Made by a program: the position numbers and the translations under genes
Origin: Bacteroidales bacterium
Lineage (GTDB): Bacteria; Bacteroidota; Bacteroidia; Bacteroidales; UBA932
Assembly (NCBI GenBank): GCA_017626555.1
Contig: JAGAIM010000019.1
Coordinates: forward strand, 20,345 to 84,344
Reading direction: 5' to 3'
Length of the DNA stretch: 64,000 nucleotides
In this document: piece after piece, positions 3,745 to 51,556 of the stretch
Layout of the letters: every line of letters starts with the position of its first letter
Numbering within the stretch: the stretch's first letter is position 1
The notes under the pieces: generated by a model
The model's database searches: none
Told to the model about the DNA's origin: nothing
Seen by the model: only the letters and a program-made list of their open reading frames with translations

Positions 3745-4797
3745 ATGAGGAAACTATTTGTCTTTTTGGGGGTTGTCTTTACGACAATCGGCTCTGCAGT
3801 CAGAGCACAGGAAGCAGACAGTACTGTGACATTGCAGAAGTCATCCTGGGGGGATGCGGAAAAATCGGAAACTGTTGATTATATCCCTGATATATCTTTT
3901 GATTTCAGAGGAGGATTCGAGCAGGATTTCGGAAATACGACCGGACGCTTCAATGGCGACGGGTTATACCTTGATATAAACGGTAATATAAGTCCACATT
4001 TATCATATAGTCTCAATCAGAGGCTTGCTTCAAGTTATTATGAAGACAATTCGGGTTTCAACGGTACGAATTGGCTGACTCTTTCATTCGAAAACGACTA
4101 TTTCGGCCTTACCTTTGGAAAGGACGCCCTTTTTGTGGGAAGTTTCGAATATGATGCATATGATCTGGACACCTACTATACTATGAACTCAATGTTCTAT
4201 AATATGCTTGATTGCTGGCAGTGGGGTGTCTCTGCATCTTGGTATCTGGCTGAAGGACAGTCTGTTGCATTTCAATTCGCTAACTCCCCTCTTTCATACG
4301 AAGGTTCTATGTTTGCATATAATGCAGCCTGGCGTGGAGAATGGGAGCATTACGAGTCATACTGGACCGCGAATCTTTGGCAGATGGCTGATGCTGCATA
4401 TCTGAAGTCTTTGAACTTCGGTAACAGATTCCATTTCGGCCCGGTAACGGTCGATCTGGAATATATGACCAGGGCAGCGGATCTCAAAGGTCTTTTTACT
4501 GATGACTTTACATTTATTGCTGCTCCTTCATATACATTTGCCGATATATTCCGGATTTTTGGAAAATTCGGTTGGGAGAGAGTTGCGGATGATCTTCCAT
4601 ACGAACTTGCCTACGAAGGTTATACGGGCACCGATTATCTTTTTTATGGAGCAGGAGTGGAAGTATTTCCTTTTCCAAATAAAGACGTAAGGTTGCACGC
4701 AGCCTGGTCAGGCAACAATTTCGACGAAAATTATCTGAATGTCGGCATAACCTGGAAATTCAACCTTACAGGAGTGTTGAAATCTCTCCTTCAATAA
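3745..4797 (+). CDS. Outer-membrane beta-barrel (porin-like) protein
   Basis: Signal peptide, alternating amphipathic strands, aromatic-rich C-terminal strand [10 protein letters not shown]; 14 bp upstream of potA. Confidence 0.7.
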
Positions 4798-4811: not shown

Positions 4812-6200
4812 ATGACAAACAACGATTATATAATAGAGATCAGGAACATCTCTAAGAGTTTCGGAGACAAAGTGATACTTGATGATGTGAGTATCAACGT
4901 GAAAAGAGGTGAATTCGTTACGATTCTCGGCCCTTCCGGCTGTGGCAAGACCACTATGCTAAGACTCCTGGCAGGTTTCGGTCAGGCAGATAAAGGGGAA
5001 ATCCTCATCAATGGAGTTGACATCACCGGCACACCCCCACATCAGCGTCCGGTAAACACCGTTTTCCAGCGTTATGCACTTTTCCCGCATCTTGATGTAT
5101 ATGAGAACATTGCATTCGGGCTCAAACTTCAGAAGGTTCCTGCTGACGAAATCGACAAGCGTGTGATGAAAGTGCTCAAAATGGTGAGTATGACTGACTA
5201 CGAAGACAGGGATGTGGAGTCTTTGTCGGGAGGCCAGCAGCAACGTGTCGCCATTGCGAGGGCGATTGCAAATCAGCCTAAGGTTCTTCTTCTGGATGAA
5301 CCCCTTGCTGCACTTGACCTGAAGATGCGCAAGGATATGCAGATCGAACTCAAGGAAATGCACAGGAAACTGGGTATAACCTTCATCTATGTGACTCACG
5401 ATCAGGAAGAGGCTCTTACCCTTTCCGACACCATCATAGTAATGAATGAAGGAAAGATTCAGCAGATCGGAACTCCTACGGATATTTATAATGAGCCTCA
5501 GAACTCTTTTGTTGCCGACTTCATCGGTGAATCGAACATCCTTAACGGCCGTATGGTCAAAGACAGGCTTGTAGAGTTTGTCGGCCACGAATTCGAATGC
5601 GTCGATGAAGGTTTCGGTGAAGATGTTCAGGTCGATGTGGTAGTTCGTCCTGAGGACATCTATATAATGAACAAGTTGGAAGGTGCACAATTCACTGCCA
5701 AGGTGAAATCCTGCACATTCAAGGGCGTACATTACGAAATGTATGTCGAAACTGAGAATGGTTTTGAACTTATGGTTCAGGACTATAATGCTTTCGAACC
5801 AGACTCTGAGGTGGGTCTTCTCATAAGGCCTGCAGACATCCAGGTGATGCATAAGGAAAGGATATGCAATACGATAGAGGCGGAAATCGTTGATGCTAAC
5901 CACGTTAAGTTCTTTGAAGAAACTTTCGAGTGTCTGCCGCACAGCGGTTTTGAAGAAGGAGAAAAAGTCAAGGTCGAAATTACATTCTCAAAGGTGGATC
6001 TTATTGACCATCCGGAAGAAGGTATGCTTTCAGGCCTTGTACACTTCCTGCTGTATAAAGGCGATCATTATCATCTGACCATTCTGACAGATGAAGGATA
6101 TCATTTGTGGGTTGATACGAACGATATCTGGGACAAGGGCGACCTTGTGGGTATTAACATTGCTCCTCAGGACATCAAGATAATAAAGTCAGATGAATAA
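4812..6200 (+). CDS. potA: Spermidine/putrescine ABC transporter ATP-binding subunit
   Basis: Walker [34 protein letters not shown]-terminal TOBE regions. Confidence 0.93.
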
Positions 6201-6960
6201 GAGATCCAGTTGGGCACTGCCCTACGCGATATTCCTTTTACTGTTTGTCGCGCTGCCTCTTGTCCTGATCATACTGTATGCTTTTCAGGACGGTTCCGGC
6301 AATTTCACATTCGGGAACTTCACCAAGTTCTTTACTGATGCAGATGCCATAGGTACTTTCGCACTTTCATTGGAGGTGGCGATTGAGAATACCCTCATCT
6401 GCATTCTTCTGGGTTATCCTGCAGCGTGGATCCTCTCTAACAAGAAACTCAATCGCAGCGCTGTAACCATTGTGCTGTTCATTATGCCTATGTGGATCAA
6501 TGCGCTTATGAGAACATTGGCTACAGCAGAACTTTTCCATATGCTAGGAATACAATTAGGTAAAGGTACTCTGCTCGTCGGTATGGTATATGATTATCTT
6601 CCGTTTATGATTTATCCGATCTACAACATTCTCAACAAGATGGACAAGTCATATATGGAGGCTGCTGCCGATCTTGGAGCCACTCCTTGGCAGGTATTCT
6701 GGAAGGTTCAGGTGCCGCTTTCTATGCCTGGAGTCGTGAGTGGAATTATGATGGTGTTTATGCCTACGGTAAGCACTTTCGCCATTTCGGAGTTCTTGAC
6801 CAACAATAAGATCAAACTGTTCGGTACGATAATTCAGGAGAACATCAATTCATCAATGTGGAACTATGGTGCTGCACTGTCGCTTATTATGCTCGTCATC
6901 ATCGGAATGACAAGCCTGCTGCAGGACAATAAGAAAGAAGTCGCGGGAGGGACTGTCTAG
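6193..6960 (+). CDS. potB: Polyamine ABC transporter permease
   Basis: Multi-[10 protein letters not shown] loop, operon position. Confidence 0.88.
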
Positions 6961-7767: not shown

Positions 7768-9075
7768 ATGAAGAAATATTTATTGATTGTTCTGTCAGCC
7801 TTGCTTCTTGCTGGCTGTTCGGAAGACAGAAGCCATATCCTGAAAGTATATAACTGGGCAGATTACATCGATGAGTCCCTCATTGATGAGTTTGAAGTAT
7901 GGTACAAGGAGCAGACAGGTGAGGATGTAGAGGTGGTATATCAGACATTCGACATCAATGAGACGATGCTTTCCAAGATAGAATTGGGACACGAAGACTA
8001 TGACCTTGCCTGCCCATCCGATTATATCATAGAGCGTATGCTCTCCAATGATCTTCTCCTGCCTATCGATACCGATTTCGGTGACACTCCCAACTACATA
8101 GACAATGTTGCTCCGTATATAAAGGAAGAACTATTTACCCAGATTGCAGGTAACGGGAAGAATGCCAATGATTATGCAGTCGGTTATATGTGGGGAACTA
8201 CAGGTATTCTTTACAATACCAAGTATGTCAGTGATGAGGAAGTAAAGTCTTGGGATGTGCTCCGCAATCCGGATTACGCTGGAAAGATCCTGGTCAAGGA
8301 TGCTTTCAGGGATGTCTATACTTCCTTGCTTATTTCGTTCAATATAGATGCCATTGAAAAAGGTGAGAAGAATCTTCAGACCATAGGTTTTGACGCATCT
8401 CCGGAGTCTATCTCGATTGTAGAGGAATATCTGAATTCTTTCAAGGATAATGTTGCAGGTTGGGAGGCAGATTTCGGAAAGGATCAGATGACCAAGGAAC
8501 TTGCCTGGCTGAATCTTTCCTGGAGCGGTGATGCCCAGTGGGCAATGGATGAGGCATCTGAAATAGGTGTAGAACTTCAGTACACTATCCCCCAGACCGG
8601 AAGTACAGTATGGTTTGACGGCTGGGTCATTCCTAAATATGCAAAGAACGTCAGGGCGGCAAGTTATTTCATTAACTTTATGTGCAAGCCGGAGAATGCT
8701 GTCAGGAATATGGATGTCATAGGATATGTCAGCACTATCGGAGGAAATGAAGTACTGGAGGCTATGTCGGACGACGAGGCGTACGAACCTATAGATGTGT
8801 CTTATTTCTTTGGGCCTGAAGCAGATAGCGTATGTGTCAGTCCGGTTTTGTATCCGGACAATATGGTTATGTCACGCTGCGGAATGATGCATGACAGCGG
8901 AACAGAGGAACTTTTGAAGATGTGGTCGAGGGTGAAGGGAGACAGCGCGTCGGCGTGGACATATACTCTTATCTGCCTGGTGTTTGTAGCGTTGATCGCT
9001 GCTGTAATCGTGAAGTATGCGAAGAAGAGGTATAGGAGGAAGAGATACGCGAAAAAGAGAAAGAAGAGATCTTGA
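7768..9075 (+). CDS. potD: Polyamine ABC transporter substrate-binding lipoprotein
   Basis: Lipobox LLAGC, LKVYNWADYID, PSDY, YMWGTTGILYN; C-terminal TM and basic tail. Confidence 0.88.
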   Translation: MKKYLLIVLSALLLAGCSEDRSHILKVYNWADYIDESLIDEFEVWYKEQTGEDVEVVYQTFDINETMLSKIELGHEDYDLACPSDYIIERMLSNDLLLPIDTDFGDTPNYIDNVAPYIKEELFTQIAGNGKNANDYAVGYMWGTTGILYNTKYVSDEEVKSWDVLRNPDYAGKILVKDAFRDVYTSLLISFNIDAIEKGEKNLQTIGFDASPESISIVEEYLNSFKDNVAGWEADFGKDQMTKELAWLNLSWSGDAQWAMDEASEIGVELQYTIPQTGSTVWFDGWVIPKYAKNVRAASYFINFMCKPENAVRNMDVIGYVSTIGGNEVLEAMSDDEAYEPIDVSYFFGPEADSVCVSPVLYPDNMVMSRCGMMHDSGTEELLKMWSRVKGDSASAWTYTLICLVFVALIAAVIVKYAKKRYRRKRYAKKRKKRS

Positions 9076-42873: not shown

Positions 42874-43221
42874 TTAGTCTTCGTATGCTGTCCTTTCGGC
42901 ATCTGCCCAAAGTTCTTCGAGTCTGTAAAATGCTCTATAAGGGGTCTGAAACACGTGTACAACGATATCACCATAATCGAGAATAACCCAAAATGCATTC
43001 TCCTTACCCTGTGAGCGCAAAACTTTTCTTCTGCACTTTTCAATCATCCTGTCCTCGATATTGTCAGCGATAGCCACAACGGCAGGAGTTGAATCCGCAT
43101 TACAAACTATAAAATGATCTGAAATTGCTGTTCCGATAGATCTGAGGTCAAGCGATACAACATCCTGTCCTTTCTTTTCGAGCATTGCATCGGCAATGAC
43201 CTTGAGTTCATTATTGTCCAT
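42874..43221 (-). CDS. rsfS: Ribosome silencing factor
   Basis: DHFIVC, WVILDYGDIVVHVF, FYRLEELW. Confidence 0.94.
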   Translation of the reverse strand: MDNNELKVIADAMLEKKGQDVVSLDLRSIGTAISDHFIVCNADSTPAVVAIADNIEDRMIEKCRRKVLRSQGKENAFWVILDYGDIVVHVFQTPYRAFYRLEELWADAERTAYED

Positions 43222-43287
43222 ATATAGAAATTATTGTTATTTTTGTCAAAATTACCTGCAAAGATAATCAAAATCCGCACCATTACA

Positions 43288-44145
43288 ATGAAGGCTGACA
43301 TTATGTGGTTTGGTTCGACTGATTCGACCAATGAAGAGGCTAAAAGGCATATTTCTGACATTGACAATTTGTCAGTCCTGTCAGCGTTGGAGCAGACAGC
43401 CGGGCGAGGACAGAGAGGAAACCAGTGGCATAGCGCTCCGGGTGAAAATCTCCTTTTCAGCATTGTTCTGAAATACCGGAAAGATCGAATGCGATCATAC
43501 GCTCTCTCCCCCGTCAGAGCCTGCGATCAGTTTGTAATAAGCCAGACAGCCTCTCTTGCCGTCACCGATTTTCTGTCCGGATACGGAATCAGGGCAAAGA
43601 TCAAATGGCCGAACGATATCTATGTCGGAGATGAAAAGATCTGCGGAATCCTTGTCGAGCATTCTATACGTGGAGAATGGCTTTCGCATAGCATCATCGG
43701 TATAGGCCTGAATATCAATCAAAGAAACTTTGATGTTAACCTGTTTAACCCCACATCAATCAGCCTGCAGACAGGTCTGTCATACGACATAAGAGAGAGT
43801 CTGGATGATTTTATGGATATTTTCACAGCCTACCTCAAACGCTATCTCAACATCAATGGAGGCTATCTCAAATTGCGCAAGATGTACCTCTCACAATTAT
43901 GGAGAAAAGACCTTGAAGCCGGCTTTATCGACTACACAACCCTTCCGACCGGCCATCTTGAGGGTCCTATGAATATACGCCCCAAAAATGATCCAGACTC
44001 AGACATCAACACACAAGAGCATTCCGGAAAAGTATTTCCAGGAATAATCAGAGGTCTCGCGTCAACCGGCAATCTCCTCGTCGAAGACCTCTCCACCGGC
44101 CTTACCCGAGAATTCGGCTTCAAGGAAATCGGGTATATCCTCTGA
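43288..44145 (+). CDS. birA: Biotin--protein ligase (no HTH)
   Basis: DSTN, QTAGRGQRGNQW, KWPND, KICGIL, GIGLNINQ. Confidence 0.9.
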   Translation: MKADIMWFGSTDSTNEEAKRHISDIDNLSVLSALEQTAGRGQRGNQWHSAPGENLLFSIVLKYRKDRMRSYALSPVRACDQFVISQTASLAVTDFLSGYGIRAKIKWPNDIYVGDEKICGILVEHSIRGEWLSHSIIGIGLNINQRNFDVNLFNPTSISLQTGLSYDIRESLDDFMDIFTAYLKRYLNINGGYLKLRKMYLSQLWRKDLEAGFIDYTTLPTGHLEGPMNIRPKNDPDSDINTQEHSGKVFPGIIRGLASTGNLLVEDLSTGLTREFGFKEIGYIL

Positions 44146-44260
44146 CAATCAACCATACGCGCTTCAATCTGCCAGACGCGCGTCATTGGAGGGAGAACTA
44201 CTCGTCAACAAACGTACATCCACATTTATTTCAAGCATTTGCCCACAAAGTTTATGAAGG

Positions 44261-44377
44261 AAGTTCTAGTGAATACCTTCTGGTCGCGGTTCACTAAAAC
44301 TGCTGAATATTGCTAATTCTGCAAGCATCAGGTAGGTTCTAGTGAATGTACTAGTCTTGAAATTCACTAGAACTAAA
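44261..44377. repeat. REP-like doublet A (two 38-bp palindromes)
   Basis: GTTCTAGTGAA-N16-TTCACTA(A/G)AAC twice, 73 bp apart; 109/117 identical to 45261-45377. Confidence 0.9.
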
Positions 44378-44441
44378 TGGGAAGTATCTAATATAATTAA
44401 TAGTTCCCAATGAGGATATTAGTCCAAGAAGGCTCATTATT

Positions 44442-44473
44442 TTTGTATAAATATCAATTTTTCTCTACATTTG
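44442..44473 (+). promoter_or_regulatory. Bacteroidetes housekeeping-sigma promoter of the cassette
   Basis: TTTG (44442-44445)-N20-TACATTTG (44466-44473), matches consensus TTTG-N19-21-TAnnTTTG. Confidence 0.7.
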
Positions 44474-44479
44474 TCAGTG

Positions 44480-44680
44480 TATAGGCGAAAGTCTATCGAT
44501 TAGAATACTATTTGCTCAATCGTCATCAGAATCACCACCTCGAAATGAACACGAGCAAAATTACACCTGTTATTGAGTAACTATGCTTTCCAGCGTAGGG
44601 TTACTCCCATTATACAGGTAGGCTTGTGGTGAGCCTTGATGGCGTATGGCAGTAGTCCTACGCCTTTTTTGTGCGTAGGG
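44480..44680 (+). ncRNA. Putative structured 5' leader (attenuator-like)
   Basis: GNRA hairpin 44481-44496; TTTGCTC/GAGCAAA stem; 13-bp stem 44593-44605/44651-44663 competing with CCTACGC/GCGTAGG 44657-44679. Confidence 0.4.
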
Positions 44681-44718
44681 GATTTGGAAACAAGTTTAAC
44701 CCTATAAAACAAAGTATT

Positions 44719-45167
44719 ATGAGACACAAACTTTTCTATTTTATAGTTGTTCTTGCAACTATGGTATTTTCTTCTTGTGACCCATCCGGTCTTAATACGA
44801 CGCCAAAGGAGAAACCAACAACTTATACCATTGTATATAATATTGACACTAGTTCATTGATTGAGGATTATATTTCGTTTGGAGCCTCAATCAAGGAAAG
44901 CGTTATCATAAGCGAATACAATGACAAAAACGAAAGAATAAACATACAAGATATGGAGAACATTCGATATGGCTCAAAGAAAACATTTACCTCTCATAGT
45001 CTTGCAGAAAAATAGCAGTATGCTTGGAAATAGAAATGTCATACAACGGCAAATCAGAAGATATGACAAGATGGGTCGCCCAAGTATTTTATTTAGAAAA
45101 GGAATCTAATATAAGCGTAACAATAGACGGAGAAACAAGAGTTAGTTCATATTGTCCAGTTGACTAA
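44719..45167 (+). pseudogene. Lipoprotein gene split by a 1-nt frameshift in an A5 run
   Basis: Lipobox VFSSC; stop at 45013-45015; one more A at 45008-45012 extends the frame (IAVCLEIEMSYNG...RWVAQVFYLEKE...CPVD*) to 45167. Confidence 0.7.
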
Positions 45168-45180
45168 TAACAATGAACAT

Positions 45181-45207
45181 TAAGGGAGAGCACAAAACTC
45201 TCCCTTA
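45181..45207 (+). terminator. Terminator of the cassette gene
   Basis: TAAGGGAGAG-CACAAAA-CTCTCCCTTA perfect 10-bp stem. Confidence 0.7.
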
Positions 45208-45260
45208 CTTATCAAATTGACATTTAACAACTTAAATGTAAAGCATTTAAATCATCTGGT

Positions 45261-45377
45261 AAGTTCTAGTGAATACCTTCTGGTCGCGGTTCACTAAAAC
45301 TGCTGAATATTGCCAATACCGCAAGCATCTGGGTGCTTCTAGTGAATGTGCTAGTCTTGAAATTCACTAGAACTAAA
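45261..45377. repeat. REP-like doublet B
   Basis: Direct repeat of 44261-44377, exactly 1000 bp downstream. Confidence 0.9.
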
Positions 45378-45450
45378 CGAGAAGGAGAGATACTTTCAGT
45401 AACATCATATCAAGATGATTCACTAAAACTGTCAGGAGAAGAAAGAGGCA

Positions 45451-46374
45451 TTACATATAGTCCATTGCGAGACACCTTCTGGCTTGTGCTTCCCCTATTT
45501 TGTACAATTCTTTAATGATATCATATAATTCCTGTTTATGAGAATATGAGAGGCAGTAAACGGAAGGAACTTTATATTGATTGACAATTATCCGGTCAAT
45601 TTCTTCACACAACTTCAAATCAGATATCCGATTGTAATCGTTACGGCCTTTCTCATTGATCAGCATCTGCTTAGGTGATGTCAAATAAACTCCTTTTTCG
45701 ATCAGTTCCATAGTAATCGGCTGCAACTGGACATTGTCACTCTTCTGTTCTTCAATCCACTTATCATCAGATGGCCTGTTCATATAGTATAAAAAACTCT
45801 TTGGCGAGGAATACAGCAATTCAACCTGCTGGACAGCAGTAACGTTCTTTCTTAATATAAGACCAGATTTGTCCATCTCGTAATTATCCGGCAACAGGAC
45901 ATTTCGACCTATATGACTATGTCTGTATCTTTTGCCTAGAAGGTCAGAATCCGGGGATTTGCCCAGTTGGGATTGGAATATGATATTGGCAGAACTGTAT
46001 GGATATGCAAATGGGGTTGGTGAAACACCGTGGTGCAAAGGATTACGGAGAGTATATGAAATCGCAGCCATAAGATGAAACAATCCATCTAGTTCAACAC
46101 AAAAGTATTCGCTCTCCCCTAACGGTCCTTTCCTCTTGTATTTTGTATTCATATGTCTGGTATAGGCCAGACGATTGATCCTCATCATTTTTTCCGGCGC
46201 GTCAGTCTGGGCTACATAATGTCTGTGATTGGACATATGCGAATCAGCCAAAGAGCAGGAATCAGTCTTATATAATGCTAGTGCATAACAATTGAATCCC
46301 CAATTGTAATCATCGTGACTACGGAAAAGAACTTCCTCCTTAGAGGAATGACAAAGATGAAAAACCTTTTTCAT
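45451..46374 (-). CDS. RAYT-like HUH (Y1) tyrosine transposase with C-terminal extension
   Basis: FHLC..LFRSHDDY, MSNHRH (HUH-like), YTRHMNTKYKRKGPL, ISYTLRNPLHHG (Y..NP), YPYSS; TATATTTG promoter at 46489-46496 (-). Confidence 0.85.
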   Translation of the reverse strand: MKKVFHLCHSSKEEVLFRSHDDYNWGFNCYALALYKTDSCSLADSHMSNHRHYVAQTDAPEKMMRINRLAYTRHMNTKYKRKGPLGESEYFCVELDGLFHLMAAISYTLRNPLHHGVSPTPFAYPYSSANIIFQSQLGKSPDSDLLGKRYRHSHIGRNVLLPDNYEMDKSGLILRKNVTAVQQVELLYSSPKSFLYYMNRPSDDKWIEEQKSDNVQLQPITMELIEKGVYLTSPKQMLINEKGRNDYNRISDLKLCEEIDRIIVNQYKVPSVYCLSYSHKQELYDIIKELYKIGEAQARRCLAMDYM

Positions 46375-46511
46375 AGCATAATTTCATATCTGGCTCTACT
46401 TCTACAACACTGTCATCACCTGTCTTCCATCAGACAGTCATCCGACAACAATCATTCAACACATTCTTCCCAAATGCTTGAAACACAACAAATATAAGAT
46501 AGTTTTTCAAT

Positions 46512-46926
46512 ACTTCACATAAAAAAATAGTTCTAGTGAACTTTTCTACTGTTATCTTCACCAGAAGTACCGAAAACAGCGGGATCCTTATAGTATTATA
46601 TAGTTCTAGTGAAAGTACTCGCCCTGACATTCACTAGAAGTTTGTTAATGAGCACTTTACATAAATAATAGTTCTAGTGAACTTTTCTACAAGTATCTTC
46701 ACCAGAAGTACCGAAAACAGCGGGATCCTTATAGTATTATATAGTTCTAGTGATAGTACTTGACCTGACATTCACTAGAAGTTTGTTATGAGCACTTCAC
46801 ATAAAAAATAGTTCTAGTGAACTTTTCTACTGTTATCTTCACCAGAAGTATCGAAAACAGCTGGATCCTTATAGTATTATATAGTTCTGGTGAAAGTACT
46901 CGCCCTGACATTCACTAGAAGTTTGT
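46512..46926. repeat. Tandem array of three ~140-bp units, each a doublet of 38-bp palindromes
   Basis: Palindromes start at 46530, 46603, 46671, 46744, 46811, 46884; an eleventh with an internally duplicated spacer lies at 46967-47022. Confidence 0.92.
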
Positions 46927-47036
46927 ATAGGGAAATGAAATAGAGATAATCTTCAGGATTTTAATGGTTCTGGTGATAATCTATATGAATCGATTTAATC
47001 TATAGAATCGATTCACTAGAAAGTACTGTCTGGAAA

Positions 47037-48092
47037 TCATAGGTAACCATTATAGAAATCATCCAACGAAATGACCATATCGATGACTTCCAGATAGTTA
47101 GCGGTGCCGGAAGTGACTTTGTTGCCTTTCAGGAATGCATCATAGAATGCTGACTGCAGACGGCCGAGGGTATTGCTGTAACGGCTGTTCCAGTATTCTC
47201 TCTGGGCATTGTACATTGCAATGACGGCCGGATTGATGGTTGAAACGAATTGCCTGTAATCTTCCTCCGGAAGGAGACGTGAGGCATTGATCAGAACGTA
47301 TGGCAGCAGGCCATAGTAACCGGCATATCTCAGTACCGGGTCATCAGAACGAGTACATATCGTATAAGCCCAGAAATTTGCCTCGTCTTCGCTGCTGACT
47401 CCAAGGAGGTGGGAATACTCGTGAACATATACGAAGTGGAACTGCCAAGGCAGAATATCATTATTCAACTGGGGCTCGCAAAAGAACGGACCCATAAATC
47501 CCATCACTCCGACCGATGAATATAATTCATTGAACAGCAGACGTTTCGGATGTTGCCATTGACGTGGAACTGAAAGTCCGGCCGAGGAAGGGAGAGCCGC
47601 AAAAGCCTCCTTGACCTGATTCTCGAAATAATCGTATCCGACATAGAACAAATCATTCGGAAGGGCTTCGTATGTCGAATTCAGACTATCTGCATAATCG
47701 GTGATGAAATCATTGAAGACGGACTCATCATAGGCCTGTCGTTCTACTCCCAATCTGTCATATATGCTTTCCCTGTAATAATTGCATCCCCATCCGATAT
47801 AGAACCAGACGTAGATCCATAAAAGAAATTCAAATGCCTGAAAAAGGATCATTACAAAAACACGTCTCTTTCTGATGCCGTTCACGATAATGAAGATAAG
47901 CAACAGGACGGCTCCTACTACAACTATTTCTTCCAGTGAAAACGGGATCCAGGACACTGAATATGAAAGGAACCCTGATACGAGCGGATAGATTACAGTC
48001 GAGTACCACTCGCCTATCTCGACCGAAAATCTTGCAGTCAGAACAAAGGCGAGAAGTACAATAAGTATAATATGTCTATGCCTGGCCTTCAC
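47037..48092 (-). CDS. DUF3810-type zincin-like membrane-anchored protein
   Basis: WYSTVIYP, WGCNYYR, MGPFFCEPQLN, HEYSHLLGVSSEDEANF. Confidence 0.8.
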   Translation of the reverse strand: MKARHRHIILIVLLAFVLTARFSVEIGEWYSTVIYPLVSGFLSYSVSWIPFSLEEIVVVGAVLLLIFIIVNGIRKRRVFVMILFQAFEFLLWIYVWFYIGWGCNYYRESIYDRLGVERQAYDESVFNDFITDYADSLNSTYEALPNDLFYVGYDYFENQVKEAFAALPSSAGLSVPRQWQHPKRLLFNELYSSVGVMGFMGPFFCEPQLNNDILPWQFHFVYVHEYSHLLGVSSEDEANFWAYTICTRSDDPVLRYAGYYGLLPYVLINASRLLPEEDYRQFVSTINPAVIAMYNAQREYWNSRYSNTLGRLQSAFYDAFLKGNKVTSGTANYLEVIDMVISLDDFYNGYL

Positions 48093-49483: not shown

Positions 49484-49911
49484 ATACGTTCCAATATAGA
49501 TCTGTACATATCTTCAACCGCTACGCTTAAGTTGCTCATCTGTATCATAACCGGCTTTCTGGCGTCCCTGAACTCAAGCCTCAGCACATCATACATAGGG
49601 AATTCGTATTTGAGTGTGGCACTTGAGAGCTCTTCGAAATAATACCTTTTGTATTCTTTCTGCCAGAGGAAACGTCTCTCAATGCGGTCTTCATAAATCC
49701 TGAGAACCGGTCTTTTCATTCTTCTGCTACGGATCACAAGAATGACGGAGACAGCGATAAACGCTCCAAGGATGAACAGGTATTCTATTATATCGCCACA
49801 ATCACCGATACTCATCAAAACAATCAGTCCGAGGATGAATATGACAATCACATAAAGTATCGATACACGGTCAGGTCTGGAGTAGGCCTCAATTACGGGA
49901 AGTTCGTTCAT
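49480..49911 (-). CDS. Hypothetical membrane protein (2 TM + soluble beta domain)
   Basis: Two TM followed by LRIYEDRIE; ATGA overlap with next gene. Confidence 0.7.
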   Translation of the reverse strand: MNELPVIEAYSRPDRVSILYVIVIFILGLIVLMSIGDCGDIIEYLFILGAFIAVSVILVIRSRRMKRPVLRIYEDRIERRFLWQKEYKRYYFEELSSATLKYEFPMYDVLRLEFRDARKPVMIQMSNLSVAVEDMYRSILERI

Positions 49912-49921
49912 AGTACGGCAG

Positions 49922-49984
49922 TTACTTGAGGAGAATCACTGTTACTGTAGCGCCTGCTGCGACGCCAAGAATTGCTAGTATCAT
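49922..49984 (-). CDS. Putative 20-aa hydrophobic small protein
   Basis: Hand translation MILAILGVAAGATVTVILLK*; first ORF after the promoter, AT-rich leader; missing from the ORF track. Confidence 0.5.
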   Translation of the reverse strand: MILAILGVAAGATVTVILLK

Positions 49985-50014
49985 AATCGTTCGTTTTTAT
50001 GGTTTTCAATGATA

Positions 50015-50051
50015 CAAAGGTAGCACGAAACAGTTTAACGCGAACAGTTTA
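50015..50051 (-). promoter_or_regulatory. Promoter with direct-repeat operator
   Basis: TACCTTTG (50015-50022, minus); AACAGTTTA twice (50029-50037, 50043-50051) across the -33 region. Confidence 0.5.
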
Positions 50052-50122
50052 CAGCAACAATATACCGCACATAACTCATTGATATTCAACGCCCGTGAAA
50101 CTTAAATCTTTCACACGTCGGA

Positions 50123-51556
50123 TCACGAGTTTGACGCAGGCGGATTTTCCAGCAGATTCTTAAGGTGATTCGCCAGATTCTTATCGTGTTCTCCAAGACC
50201 AAGTTTATGACGTATCACACTTCCGTATGTATAGTGCCTCTTCAGGTTTATGTATTCACCTATCTCCTTACCGTTAAGTCCGACGAGATACAGGCAGCAG
50301 TAATTCACCTCCCAATCGGTAAGACCGCGTGAACAAAGGTATGACATAAACTTCGGATGCCCGGCCTCGAACGACTTTCTGGTCGATTCGAGGAAAGCCT
50401 CTCGATTTGATATGAGCATCTCGATCTGGGCATTGGCCTCCTTGTTTGCCGAAGATGAATCCGTAATGTATGAAGCGATGACCTTGTTGAGCAAGGCAAG
50501 CCTCTGCTTTATCACAGCCTTCATCTCATCATCTGCATTCTTCGCTTCCGCCATCTTGTTCAAGGCTTCACGCTCGATCAATGCATCAGCATATAGTTTC
50601 TCTACCCTAGCCTTCTCTATGCTCATAAGAACATTGTCCTGCATACTCTTGGAAAGGCGTCTGCGGGTCTCACGAAGAGCAAGGAGAACTGCAATAAGAA
50701 TAATGAAAAAACCAAGAAGAATGGTATTCATATCACGCCTTCTGGCTTCCTTGTCTTCAAAAAAGAAATGTCTTTCCTCAATAAAACGGGTATCACTGGT
50801 ATGTTGTATCCGAGCCAGAGAATCAGCCAGAACATTATGACGTTCAAGAGCAGTCAGGGCTGCCTCAAAATCGCCCTGAGATTTGAGAACCTGATACAGA
50901 ACGACATAATAATTCTGATCACGGCTGATATCCTTGGCTTCGGCCTCCTTTCTTATGGCGTGTAGCGCCTTATCATACTCACCGGCCTCATTGTAATAAA
51001 ATGCCAGAATACGCCAGTCTGGTGTACCTTCTGTCGGCAGATCGGCAAGATAAGCATCGATCAGAGGAACAGCGGCTTCCGCTCCGTCTTCAAGTTCAGT
51101 CAGTTTTATCCTGCAGAGATGATATGCGTGCTTTGCCTGCCCCTGATAGAATCTCGCATTTTCCTGCATAATGCTGATGCACTTATGCGCGCGGGAAGCA
51201 TCAAGATTCAGGACACTGGCATCACATAAAAGAAGCAGAGCATTGCAATAGTTCAAAGTGTCTCCGGAAGTCAGGAAAATATCTGTACCCTCTGAATATG
51301 AATCGATTGCCTTGGCATAGTCAAAGTACCTGTAGTAAATATCTCCCTTACGCATCTTCAGAAAACCGAGTTCCGCAGAAGGGATATCTTCATTATAGCA
51401 TTTCTCCGCCTTGACCAAGGCATTCATAGCCTCCTCGTCCTTTCCCTGCCGGAAAAGTTCTTCTGCAGAATGGAGATACGAAGCAAAATCTTCTGTCTGT
51501 CTCATTTGACACGAAACTGACAGAAGAATTATAATGGAGAGCGTGATAATTTTCAT
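50123..51556 (-). CDS. TPR-TM-HTH (LuxR-like) membrane sensor/regulator
   Basis: Lipobox-like SVSC, TPR-like helices, one TM, C-terminal GLTDWEVNYCCLYLVGLNGKEIG..IRHKLGL. Confidence 0.75.
   Translation of the reverse strand: MKIITLSIIILLSVSCQMRQTEDFASYLHSAEELFRQGKDEEAMNALVKAEKCYNEDIPSAELGFLKMRKGDIYYRYFDYAKAIDSYSEGTDIFLTSGDTLNYCNALLLLCDASVLNLDASRAHKCISIMQENARFYQGQAKHAYHLCRIKLTELEDGAEAAVPLIDAYLADLPTEGTPDWRILAFYYNEAGEYDKALHAIRKEAEAKDISRDQNYYVVLYQVLKSQGDFEAALTALERHNVLADSLARIQHTSDTRFIEERHFFFEDKEARRRDMNTILLGFFIILIAVLLALRETRRRLSKSMQDNVLMSIEKARVEKLYADALIEREALNKMAEAKNADDEMKAVIKQRLALLNKVIASYITDSSSANKEANAQIEMLISNREAFLESTRKSFEAGHPKFMSYLCSRGLTDWEVNYCCLYLVGLNGKEIGEYINLKRHYTYGSVIRHKLGLGEHDKNLANHLKNLLENPPASNS

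Follow-up and report, generated by a model that had tools for sequence, protein, structure and literature searches.

A strain-variable lipoprotein gene unit between REP-like hairpin doublets, next to a RAYT-type HUH/Y1 gene of a gut Bacteroidales species

The stretch of DNA analysed here (64,000 nucleotides, hereafter the window) is part of contig C58 in a Bacteroidales assembly of 3.09 Mb and 222 contigs. Our subject is a gene cassette found between birA and the gene for an HUH/Y1 protein resembling RAYTs (REP-associated tyrosine transposases, REP standing for repetitive extragenic palindrome). The cassette comprises a promoter, a leader, one small lipoprotein gene and a hairpin. It is bracketed by direct copies, A and B, of a repeat composed of two hairpins, which we call a doublet, and alleles with and without it occur within the species. 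The features of the locus are as follows.

43288-44145, + strand: birA (biotin-protein ligase), the conserved left flank (Pfam BPL_LplA_LipB, E 2.5e-20)
44261-44384, + strand: doublet A, with hairpin 1 at 44264-44299, a 37-nt linker and hairpin 2 at 44337-44372
44387-45241, + strand: unique inserted segment of ~855 nt, missing from empty alleles (from junctions with L110, L111, L084 and L102, and from the 1000-bp skip of X19)
44443-44473, + strand: Bacteroidetes-type promoter, with TTTG at 44443-44446, 19 nt, then TACATTTG at 44466-44473
44508-44670, + strand: conserved, predicted structured leader RNA, ending in a terminator-like hairpin
44719-45167, + strand: small lipoprotein gene, frameshifted here (98 aa up to a TAG at 45013-45015, the rest in another frame, ~45000-45167)
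45181-45207, + strand: G+C-rich hairpin of 11 pairs just 3' of the stop codon, a probable terminator
45261-45384, + strand: doublet B, with hairpins at 45264-45299 and 45337-45372
45451-46374, - strand: RAYT-like HUH/Y1 protein of 307 aa (from an AlphaFold2 model, Foldseek and conserved residues)
46507-46926, + strand: array of three doublets in tandem (period 140 nt), beyond the RAYT gene
47037-48092, - strand: DUF3810 gene, the conserved right flank (Pfam PF12725, E 1e-90; synteny in related contigs)

Doublets A and B, as delimited by a repeat search, are identical at 114 of 124 positions (92%) and start 1000 bp apart. An earlier reading made from the letters alone (hereafter the sequence-only reading) had counted 109 of 117 identical positions at the same distance, which describes the same repeat with slightly tighter limits. 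Each copy consists of two 36-nt palindromic hairpins, TTCTAGTGAA-N16-TTCACTAGAA, with a start-to-start pitch of 73 nt. Their arms, (A)GTTCTAGTGAA / TTCACTAGAAC(T), are invariant over 10-13 nt in A and B between lineages, and the doublets, folded as single-stranded DNA, are much more stable than shuffled controls (z-scores of -4.2 to -5.7). As A and B are 1007 bp apart in a sister lineage, the spacing of 1000 bp has no special meaning. On the left, junction comparisons extend the homology between A and the empty alleles to position 44386; on the right, B is followed by the same RAYT-side flank that single doublets bear in empty alleles. A diverged version of A's left flank seems to precede B over 19 nt (45242-45260), and the unit that was duplicated may measure ~160 nt. 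Within the insert, positions 44393-44406 possibly represent a leftover of a doublet left edge (repeat family D15). By eye only, the ends of the insert suggested a terminal inverted repeat or a target duplication of 5 bp (AGTTC); these candidates are not conserved in homologous modules and were discarded.

The interior of the cassette has a G+C content of 34.7%, versus 45.7% for birA and 46.1% for the genome, in agreement with the earlier impression of an AT-rich insert. The promoter, which the sequence-only reading had placed at 44442-44473, fits the Bacteroidetes -33/-7 consensus described in the literature, and its -7 box is conserved at the same position in homologous modules (G002, L064, L071 and L075). 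A scan for sigma-70 promoters missed it and is uninformative. Between promoter and gene lies a leader of ~240 nt. Its predicted fold has a long-range stem (CAGAATCACCAC with GTGGTGA…) around two hairpins, followed by the terminator-like hairpin (stem 44641-44646 / 44659-44664, T-run 44665-44670), and 11 of the 38 pairs of the consensus fold show compensatory changes. The leader has no Rfam match, and a search of Rfam over positions 43000-47500 at E<=1 returned only a chance snoRNA-like match. The RNA runs showed only the leader blocks of relatives, and the window cassette was not seen in them.

As for the lipoprotein gene, the single gene proposed earlier at 44719-45167 is intact in sister lineages, where it encodes a 149-aa protein (P0001, 99% identical to the window copy), whereas in the window it is frameshifted. 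An in-frame TAG directly 3' of an A-run interrupts it, and its C-terminal third is read in another frame. Intact P0001 was found in 16 contigs, all at the birA-RAYT locus. The frameshifted allele recurs together with the exact RAYT of the window in several independent samples, which makes the frameshift a true marker of the lineage rather than an artefact of assembly. The signal peptide ends in ...VFSSC. The protein is predicted, with moderate confidence, to fold as a small beta-sandwich, with no significant match in PDB; the best structural match, a TssJ-like lipoprotein (TM 0.4), was rejected as not significant. Sequence searches of the lipoprotein and of the RAYT in Pfam, PHROGs and PDB gave nothing useful. 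The hairpin at 45181-45207 had previously been called a terminator, which appears sound: our scan lists it on the minus strand only, and on the strand of the gene the same stem lies 3' of the stop codon with a weak T-run.

The RAYT gene lies 66 nt from doublet B. The AlphaFold2 model of its product (pLDDT 91.3) has as top Foldseek match 4ER8, the Escherichia coli TnpA-REP with its REP hairpin (E 7e-5, TM 0.71 on the target), followed by the TnpA proteins of IS608, ISDra2 and IS200. Across 26 aligned homologues, residues H50, H52 and Y107 do not vary. According to the model, the ~125 N-terminal residues form the HUH/Y1 catalytic fold and the ~180 C-terminal residues an additional helical domain. 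The protein has no Pfam match even at E 10, Y1_Tnp (PF01797) included; one distant homologue bears PF01797. The NCBIfam model REP_Tyr_transpos matches below threshold (E 0.0048; 16.8 bits for a cutoff of 80), and PDB searches by sequence and by profile returned no match. There is no second near-identical copy in the genome, the nearest paralogue, on C43, being 46% identical. The order birA-RAYT-DUF3810 is retained down to 81% RAYT nucleotide identity, and the gene is single-copy and vertically inherited. An apparent deletion of RAYT in contig L059 proved to be a gap filled with Ns in the scaffold.

Both states of the site are seen when Logan contigs of gut metagenomes, drawn from several unrelated studies, are compared with the window locus. 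The cassette is present in X1, X5, X10 and X12. In X19, a contig of 1809 nt passes from 43714-44320 directly to 45321-46541, skipping exactly 1000 bp, and 40 nt at the joint fit both sides. Between the filled and the empty allele the difference is thus exactly one period of the repeat, and the junction falls within the homologous sequence. The major strain of X13 has three tandem doublets and no cassette, a minor strain of X5 has tandem doublets only, and X16 and X18 show almost no depth across the interior. Cargo-free tandem doublets occur at this site, with periods of ~142, 144 and 176-179 nt. Three further contigs from ENA/Logan (L110-L112) are empty and show two or three hairpins that can be recognised (in L110, those named X, Y and Z); their RAYT genes are 98.6-98.7% and their birA genes 97.3-97.6% identical to those of the window. 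Empty alleles retain A's left-hand flank and B's right-hand flank.

The comparison was extended to contigs whose RAYT variants belong to the same 90% cluster, about 50 contigs of seven sequence lineages in all. The cassette is absent from three related lineages with the same gene order: L102-109 (RAYT 95% identical) have two doublets with a 179-nt period, L084-89 (88% nucleotide identity) two tandem doublets, and L090-97 (81%) one doublet on each side. In L084, A's left flank (…ttatgaagg|aagttctag) and B's right flank (ctaaacgaga.ggag.gatactttcag…) border a single doublet. In G002, the nearest species in the genome set, rpe directly follows birA and there is no cassette. The state in related lineages is thus one doublet between these flanks, and the cassette and the second doublet copy are derived. 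Because these relatives lack the cassette and have between one and three doublets, the cassette is a derived insertion. The idea of cargo at the repeat, put forward in the sequence-only reading, is borne out by these empty sites: a site with one doublet was found, no relative carried the gene at this position without the repeats, and empty alleles exist. A site with different cargo was not found in any of the about 50 contigs, and neither this genome nor the public contigs found have a second doublet locus with the cassette. An exact 30-mer of the left end of the cassette has no match in JGI metagenome contigs.

The age of the cassette was assessed by comparing the window with the L056 lineage, from which its flanks have diverged by 1.40% overall (12 of 1221 positions substituted in ftsH/rsfS, 0.98%; 18 of 912 in birA, 1.97%; 13 of 924 in RAYT, 1.41%). 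The doublets have changed much more, with 14 of 124 substitutions in A (11.3%) and 17 of 124 in B (13.7%). The interior has no substitution in 876 positions (0%) and differs by two length changes only, where 12.3 substitutions would be expected at the flank rate (Poisson P = 4.7e-6). The identical tract is bounded by 44335, where hairpin 2 of doublet A has its foot, and by 45277, within the first hairpin of B. Because the interior lacks substitutions and the tract ends in the doublets, the cassette is younger than its flanks and the endpoints of exchange lie inside the doublets. In each lineage the loops of hairpin 1 of A and of B carry the same six lineage-specific substitutions, which indicates concerted change of the two copies.

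The phylogeny of the flanking genes adds to this picture. In an IQ-TREE analysis of birA and RAYT, the empty L110 and L111 fall inside the cassette-bearing clade, as sisters of the window lineage (support 95/97), so that at least two changes of the cassette state are needed. In both, an A-type right end (taaatgggaagta) is joined straight to the RAYT-side flank, whereas in all alleles with the cassette the right end of doublet B is of the other type (taaacgagaagga); L110 and L111 are therefore not simple products of a deletion between A and B. Their structure and the tree together point to transfer of the cassette between backgrounds. Judging from these sequence comparisons, the cassette appears to have moved between genetic backgrounds after their divergence, with exchange points within the doublets.

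Where the cargo comes from is suggested by its homologues. The module is single-copy in this genome. Homologous modules elsewhere, with 41-76% identity, occur in unrelated contexts: next to a serine resolvase (L064), a Transposase_mut gene (L070) or an IS1595 transposase (L074), as the last gene of an element with an integrase and a DUF5906 primase next to rpsJ (L065-67), and after an FKBP gene (L075). None of these homologous modules has the TTCTAGTGAA hairpins, and the search suggested earlier for lipoprotein and leader at other loci flanked by the same doublets found none. The -7 box, leader and signal peptide are conserved among modules, the leader more so than the coding sequence; conservation ends at the stop codon, and each homologous module has its own hairpin just after it. 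A covariance model of the leader matches 7 of 151 genomes of the genus, and an exact 29-mer of the leader was matched in MAGs (metagenome-assembled genomes) of Alistipes, of Rikenella and of a further member of the Bacteroidales, ahead of different (lipoprotein) genes. The leader is a candidate for a new cis-regulatory RNA or attenuator. Being AT-rich, single-copy, sporadic in the genus and associated elsewhere with mobile elements, the module is most simply viewed as foreign. In L075, from another organism, promoter and leader are near-identical and the coding sequence is 3'-truncated; this module lies ~45 nt 3' of a different hairpin pair (4561-4700; GAATCAAAAAA…TTTTTTGATTC), 82 nt apart. 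This makes L075 an independent second case of a module accompanied by a hairpin doublet.

We favour, with a probability of roughly 55%, the explanation that a foreign lipoprotein unit has lodged in the doublet array of the RAYT gene and that the doublets act as portable homology for its gain, loss and exchange. A self-contained unit (promoter, structured leader RNA, gene for a 149-aa lipoprotein, hairpin) would have landed inside a REP-like doublet array bordering the RAYT-type HUH/Y1 gene that a Candidatus Cryptobacteroides species carries as a vertically inherited resident. The doublet copies, of 124-160 nt, would serve as short homology, and recombination within them would add, remove or exchange a unit of ~0.86-1.0 kb among strains while homogenising parts of A and B. 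A plausible route would be a double crossover into a recipient with two tandem doublets, the left crossover falling in the first doublet and the right one in the second; such recipient alleles do exist. The RAYT would only create and maintain the doublets and would not be required for movement of the cassette. We infer host homologous recombination as the agent; the same applies to how the first insertion happened and to any function of the lipoprotein, whose gene is broken here. Copy-number variation of the array and inversion-type joints on another contig are further rearrangements at doublets that agree with this explanation.

Several points weigh against it. The A/B mosaic fits neither one Campbell-type crossover nor one double crossover without additional gene-conversion steps, and a model with a single Campbell-type crossover per lineage was rejected, as the donor doublets predicted from each lineage disagree. 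Doublets that differ by 11-14% between lineages, apart from their invariant arms, are a poor substrate for RecA-type recombination over ~120 nt. Fast change of the repeats alone could mimic tract endpoints at the doublets, and recombination may distort the tree of the flanking genes. The population data are all assembled contigs, which break inside repeats and hide rare forms. Finally, no donor allele was found, and the explanation leaves the primary insertion unaccounted for.

Among the alternatives, the one that survives best treats the repeats as bystanders: after a one-off illegitimate insertion between existing tandem doublets, allelic recombination and hypermutable palindromes would have produced what we see. 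The cargo-free tandem doublets at the site, with their periods of ~142, 144 and 176-179 nt, provide the setting that it requires; tandem neighbours elsewhere are 86-93% identical, comparable to A and B; the possible left-edge remnant at 44393-44406 is in keeping with it; and doublets that evolve much faster than their flanks could give apparent tract ends. However, it does not readily account for the precise one-period empty allele with junction homology in X19, for the lineage-specific changes common to A and B, or for an interior without substitutions whose two edges both fall in doublets. Moreover, the single L084 doublet with both outer flanks argues that the duplication is tied to the insertion. 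We regard this scenario as possible but rather unlikely.

It is tempting to speculate that the RAYT itself moves the cassette, by cutting single-stranded DNA at matching positions in A and B, freeing the cassette with one doublet as a circle and re-inserting it at another doublet, in an integrase-free but integron-like manner. The confidently modelled HUH/Y1 fold, nearest to TnpA-REP bound to its hairpin and encoded next to B, is what such an activity would call for, and the indel of exactly one period would follow from it. A young interior with an identical tract that ends in A's second hairpin and B's first, the L110/L111 alleles that a simple homologous deletion does not yield, and the L075 module close to a different hairpin doublet are likewise compatible with it. 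Yet the cassette sits at one locus only, in this genome as in every public contig found; the site holds no alternative cargo; circle-type joints, which the sequence-only reading had proposed to look for together with excision junctions, were not seen in assembled contigs, which break inside repeats; and most homologous modules adjoin classical transposases or recombinases and lack such hairpins. IS200/IS605-type transposition leaves the ends unduplicated, and to our knowledge no RAYT has been shown to move cargo, both of which also count against it. This mechanism seems to us less probable than the bystander scenario, and its specific form, in which cassette and one doublet are the mobile unit of a RAYT-type HUH enzyme and a single-stranded circle re-inserts in another cell of the species, a little less probable again. 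Nothing ties the HUH enzyme to the event, so that the HUH-mediated insertion proposed from the sequence alone stays a conjecture; the integron-like landing pad found no backing, given the single cargo and the single occupied doublet locus. As a whole, that interpretation is partly supported.

A native origin, in which the lipoprotein unit has long resided between birA and RAYT, REP doublets later spread to either side of it and all empty alleles are deletions, would suit the habit of REP-type repeats of settling intergenic sites and the doublets 3' of several ordinary genes here, but it is already disfavoured and very improbable in view of the gene's absence from this site in all three related lineages and G002, the AT-rich interior, the sporadic presence of the module in the genus and also in Rikenellaceae MAGs, and an interior younger than its flanks.

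The surroundings of the cassette can be described briefly. Its neighbours are ftsH, rsfS, birA, the RAYT gene and the DUF3810 gene, and no recombinase gene lies near it. The ftsH-rsfS-birA synteny is retained in G002, and birA gene calls in sister contigs correspond to 285 aa. BirA of the window species (43234-44145; 285-303 aa depending on the start codon) is ~30-48 aa longer than the 255-aa protein of G002 owing to an insertion near the C-terminus, and the BirA proteins of related lineages have 312-317 aa. The right-hand doublet array (46507-47026) varies from 1 to ~9 doublets across related contigs, and an X18 contig omits 46612-47007, giving a shorter array.

Genome-wide, we counted ~24 doublets at ~12 loci, which fall into several sequence sub-families with one geometry. 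The RAYT paralogue on C43 is flanked by its own, different palindrome, likewise as doublets, with a 72-nt pitch. Among RAYT loci of the genus, a locus-specific hairpin repeat was detected beside the gene in ~50 of 80, often with one doublet on each side; the arm sequences vary from locus to locus and the 72-73-nt pitch is kept. These RAYT-like proteins belong to a large divergent subfamily (~305 aa, HUH/Y1 and a helical C-terminal domain, no Pfam match; e.g. L099 1574-2494 and L115-L194), which occurs in Candidatus Cryptobacteroides and relatives. Public genomes of the relatives, which come from ruminant and other animal guts, go by the names Candidatus Cryptobacteroides sp. or Bacteroidales bacterium. 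At several loci of this subfamily, 0.6-1.9 kb separate the RAYT gene from one cognate doublet (L152 4913-6792, L161 4922-5560, L173 4913-6235, and L124/L126, to the left of RAYT); what lies in between (lipoprotein genes, a metallophosphoesterase or unknown genes) may be cargo or ordinary neighbours.

Elsewhere in the genome, the doublets of one sub-family lie just 3' of several, but not all, tandem paralogues of a ~790-aa FtsX/MacB-like permease. They occur at the following positions.

C9:55307-57953: permease-associated doublets
C76:5897-13511: permease-associated doublets
C121:3256-3364: permease-associated doublets

Doublet pairs on C9, C76 and C187 were considered as cassettes and rejected, since they do not look like captured cassettes. 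One further doublet pair encloses an ORF6N-like gene. On C187, two direct doublets with a period of 754 bp enclose a non-coding, hairpin-rich segment of 645 nt (49711-50355); their repeat reaches at least 36 nt past the doublet, and the segment has no Rfam match. At three other doublet loci, Rfam returned only a tRNA. The same region (L098, G000:C187:48500-58000) has doublets at 1103-1211, 1857-1965, 6114-6222 and 7975-8083, and contigs from other samples join there at inverted doublets on opposite strands (e.g. X13, 676-1129 followed by 8056-7808). These joints suggest an inversion polymorphism between inverted doublets, a noisy result given the other organisms in the metagenomes. Contigs on the C187 loci show no clean skip of one period, only inversion-type joints, which would fit the repeats being recombination substrates.

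The closest known systems are the REPtron, as described for the E. coli TnpA-REP YafM with REP/BIME (bacterial interspersed mosaic element; 4ER8) and for Pseudomonas REPINs, together with TnpA-Y1 class 2 of Quentin et al. 2018 (PMC6006769), who reported Bacteroidetes TnpA-Y1 subclasses flanked by 'atypical secondary structures'. The window locus shares with the REPtron an HUH/Y1 fold in which HxH and Tyr are conserved, cognate palindromes on either side of the gene that are also dispersed in intergenic regions, a fixed chromosomal position across related lineages and a repeat type specific to each paralogue. By these features it is a REPtron arrangement, in which the RAYT may bind and cleave the hairpins. 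Nevertheless, the protein, with its 307 aa, big C-terminal helical domain and lack of a Pfam Y1_Tnp match, belongs to a divergent subfamily, and its repeats are two separate 36-nt palindromes with a 73-nt pitch instead of inverted REP pairs in one long hairpin. The foot of the arms also lacks the GTAG or CGTC tetranucleotide tag, which PMC3733652 gives as a criterion for REPs. The copy number is low (~24 doublets), and a non-transposase gene inside the array is not part of the described systems.

Recombination between REP/BIME copies yields duplications, and the locus resembles REP/BIME rearrangements in that hairpin repeats harbour foreign DNA and serve as breakpoints for deletions, duplications and inversions. 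REPs are also insertion targets for IS (insertion sequence) elements (Tobes & Pareja 2006, PMC1525189). Unlike such insertions, the window insert has no transposase, terminal inverted repeats or short target duplication, and is bracketed by two full repeat copies. With integron cassettes (IntI, attI/attC) it has in common a single-gene unit, structured imperfect repeats, and filled and empty alleles one unit apart. In contrast to integrons, no integrase of the tyrosine-recombinase type lies near it, the cassette has its own promoter and terminator, a single cassette type at a single site is known, and the doublets have near-perfect arms where attC sites form bulged hairpins. An IS200/IS605-type element with a passenger, or a PATE/MITE, does not match either, since the ends are direct copies of one unit and the cassette is single-copy at one site and not at several insertion sites. 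Finally, morons and direct-repeat-flanked islets are similar as promoter-gene-terminator units of deviant G+C content that vary among strains and are lost or gained precisely by one period. They differ in that the flanking homology here is a transposase-associated hairpin family, not a duplicated tRNA or att site, and that there is no phage context.

The role of REP sequences and RAYT genes for their hosts is not settled, and this locus offers a clean natural case of a non-transposase gene in the array of a RAYT. The repeats mark the gain and loss of the gene and probably promote them; an integron-like capture system is a conjecture. Should a circle moved by the RAYT prove true, REP-doublet arrays next to RAYT genes would constitute a second gene-capture platform, independent of integrases, and RAYTs, whose function has been debated since their discovery, would gain a concrete role in moving cargo. 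The locus also brings to light a previously undescribed leader RNA, predicted to be structured, which accompanies different lipoprotein genes in more than one family of Bacteroidales. In an abundant, uncultured genus of gut Bacteroidales, doublet repeats of this kind are hotspots of structural variation between strains, and the coexistence of filled and empty alleles in wild populations makes the gain and shedding of genes at REP arrays, and the involvement of the HUH enzyme in them, testable.

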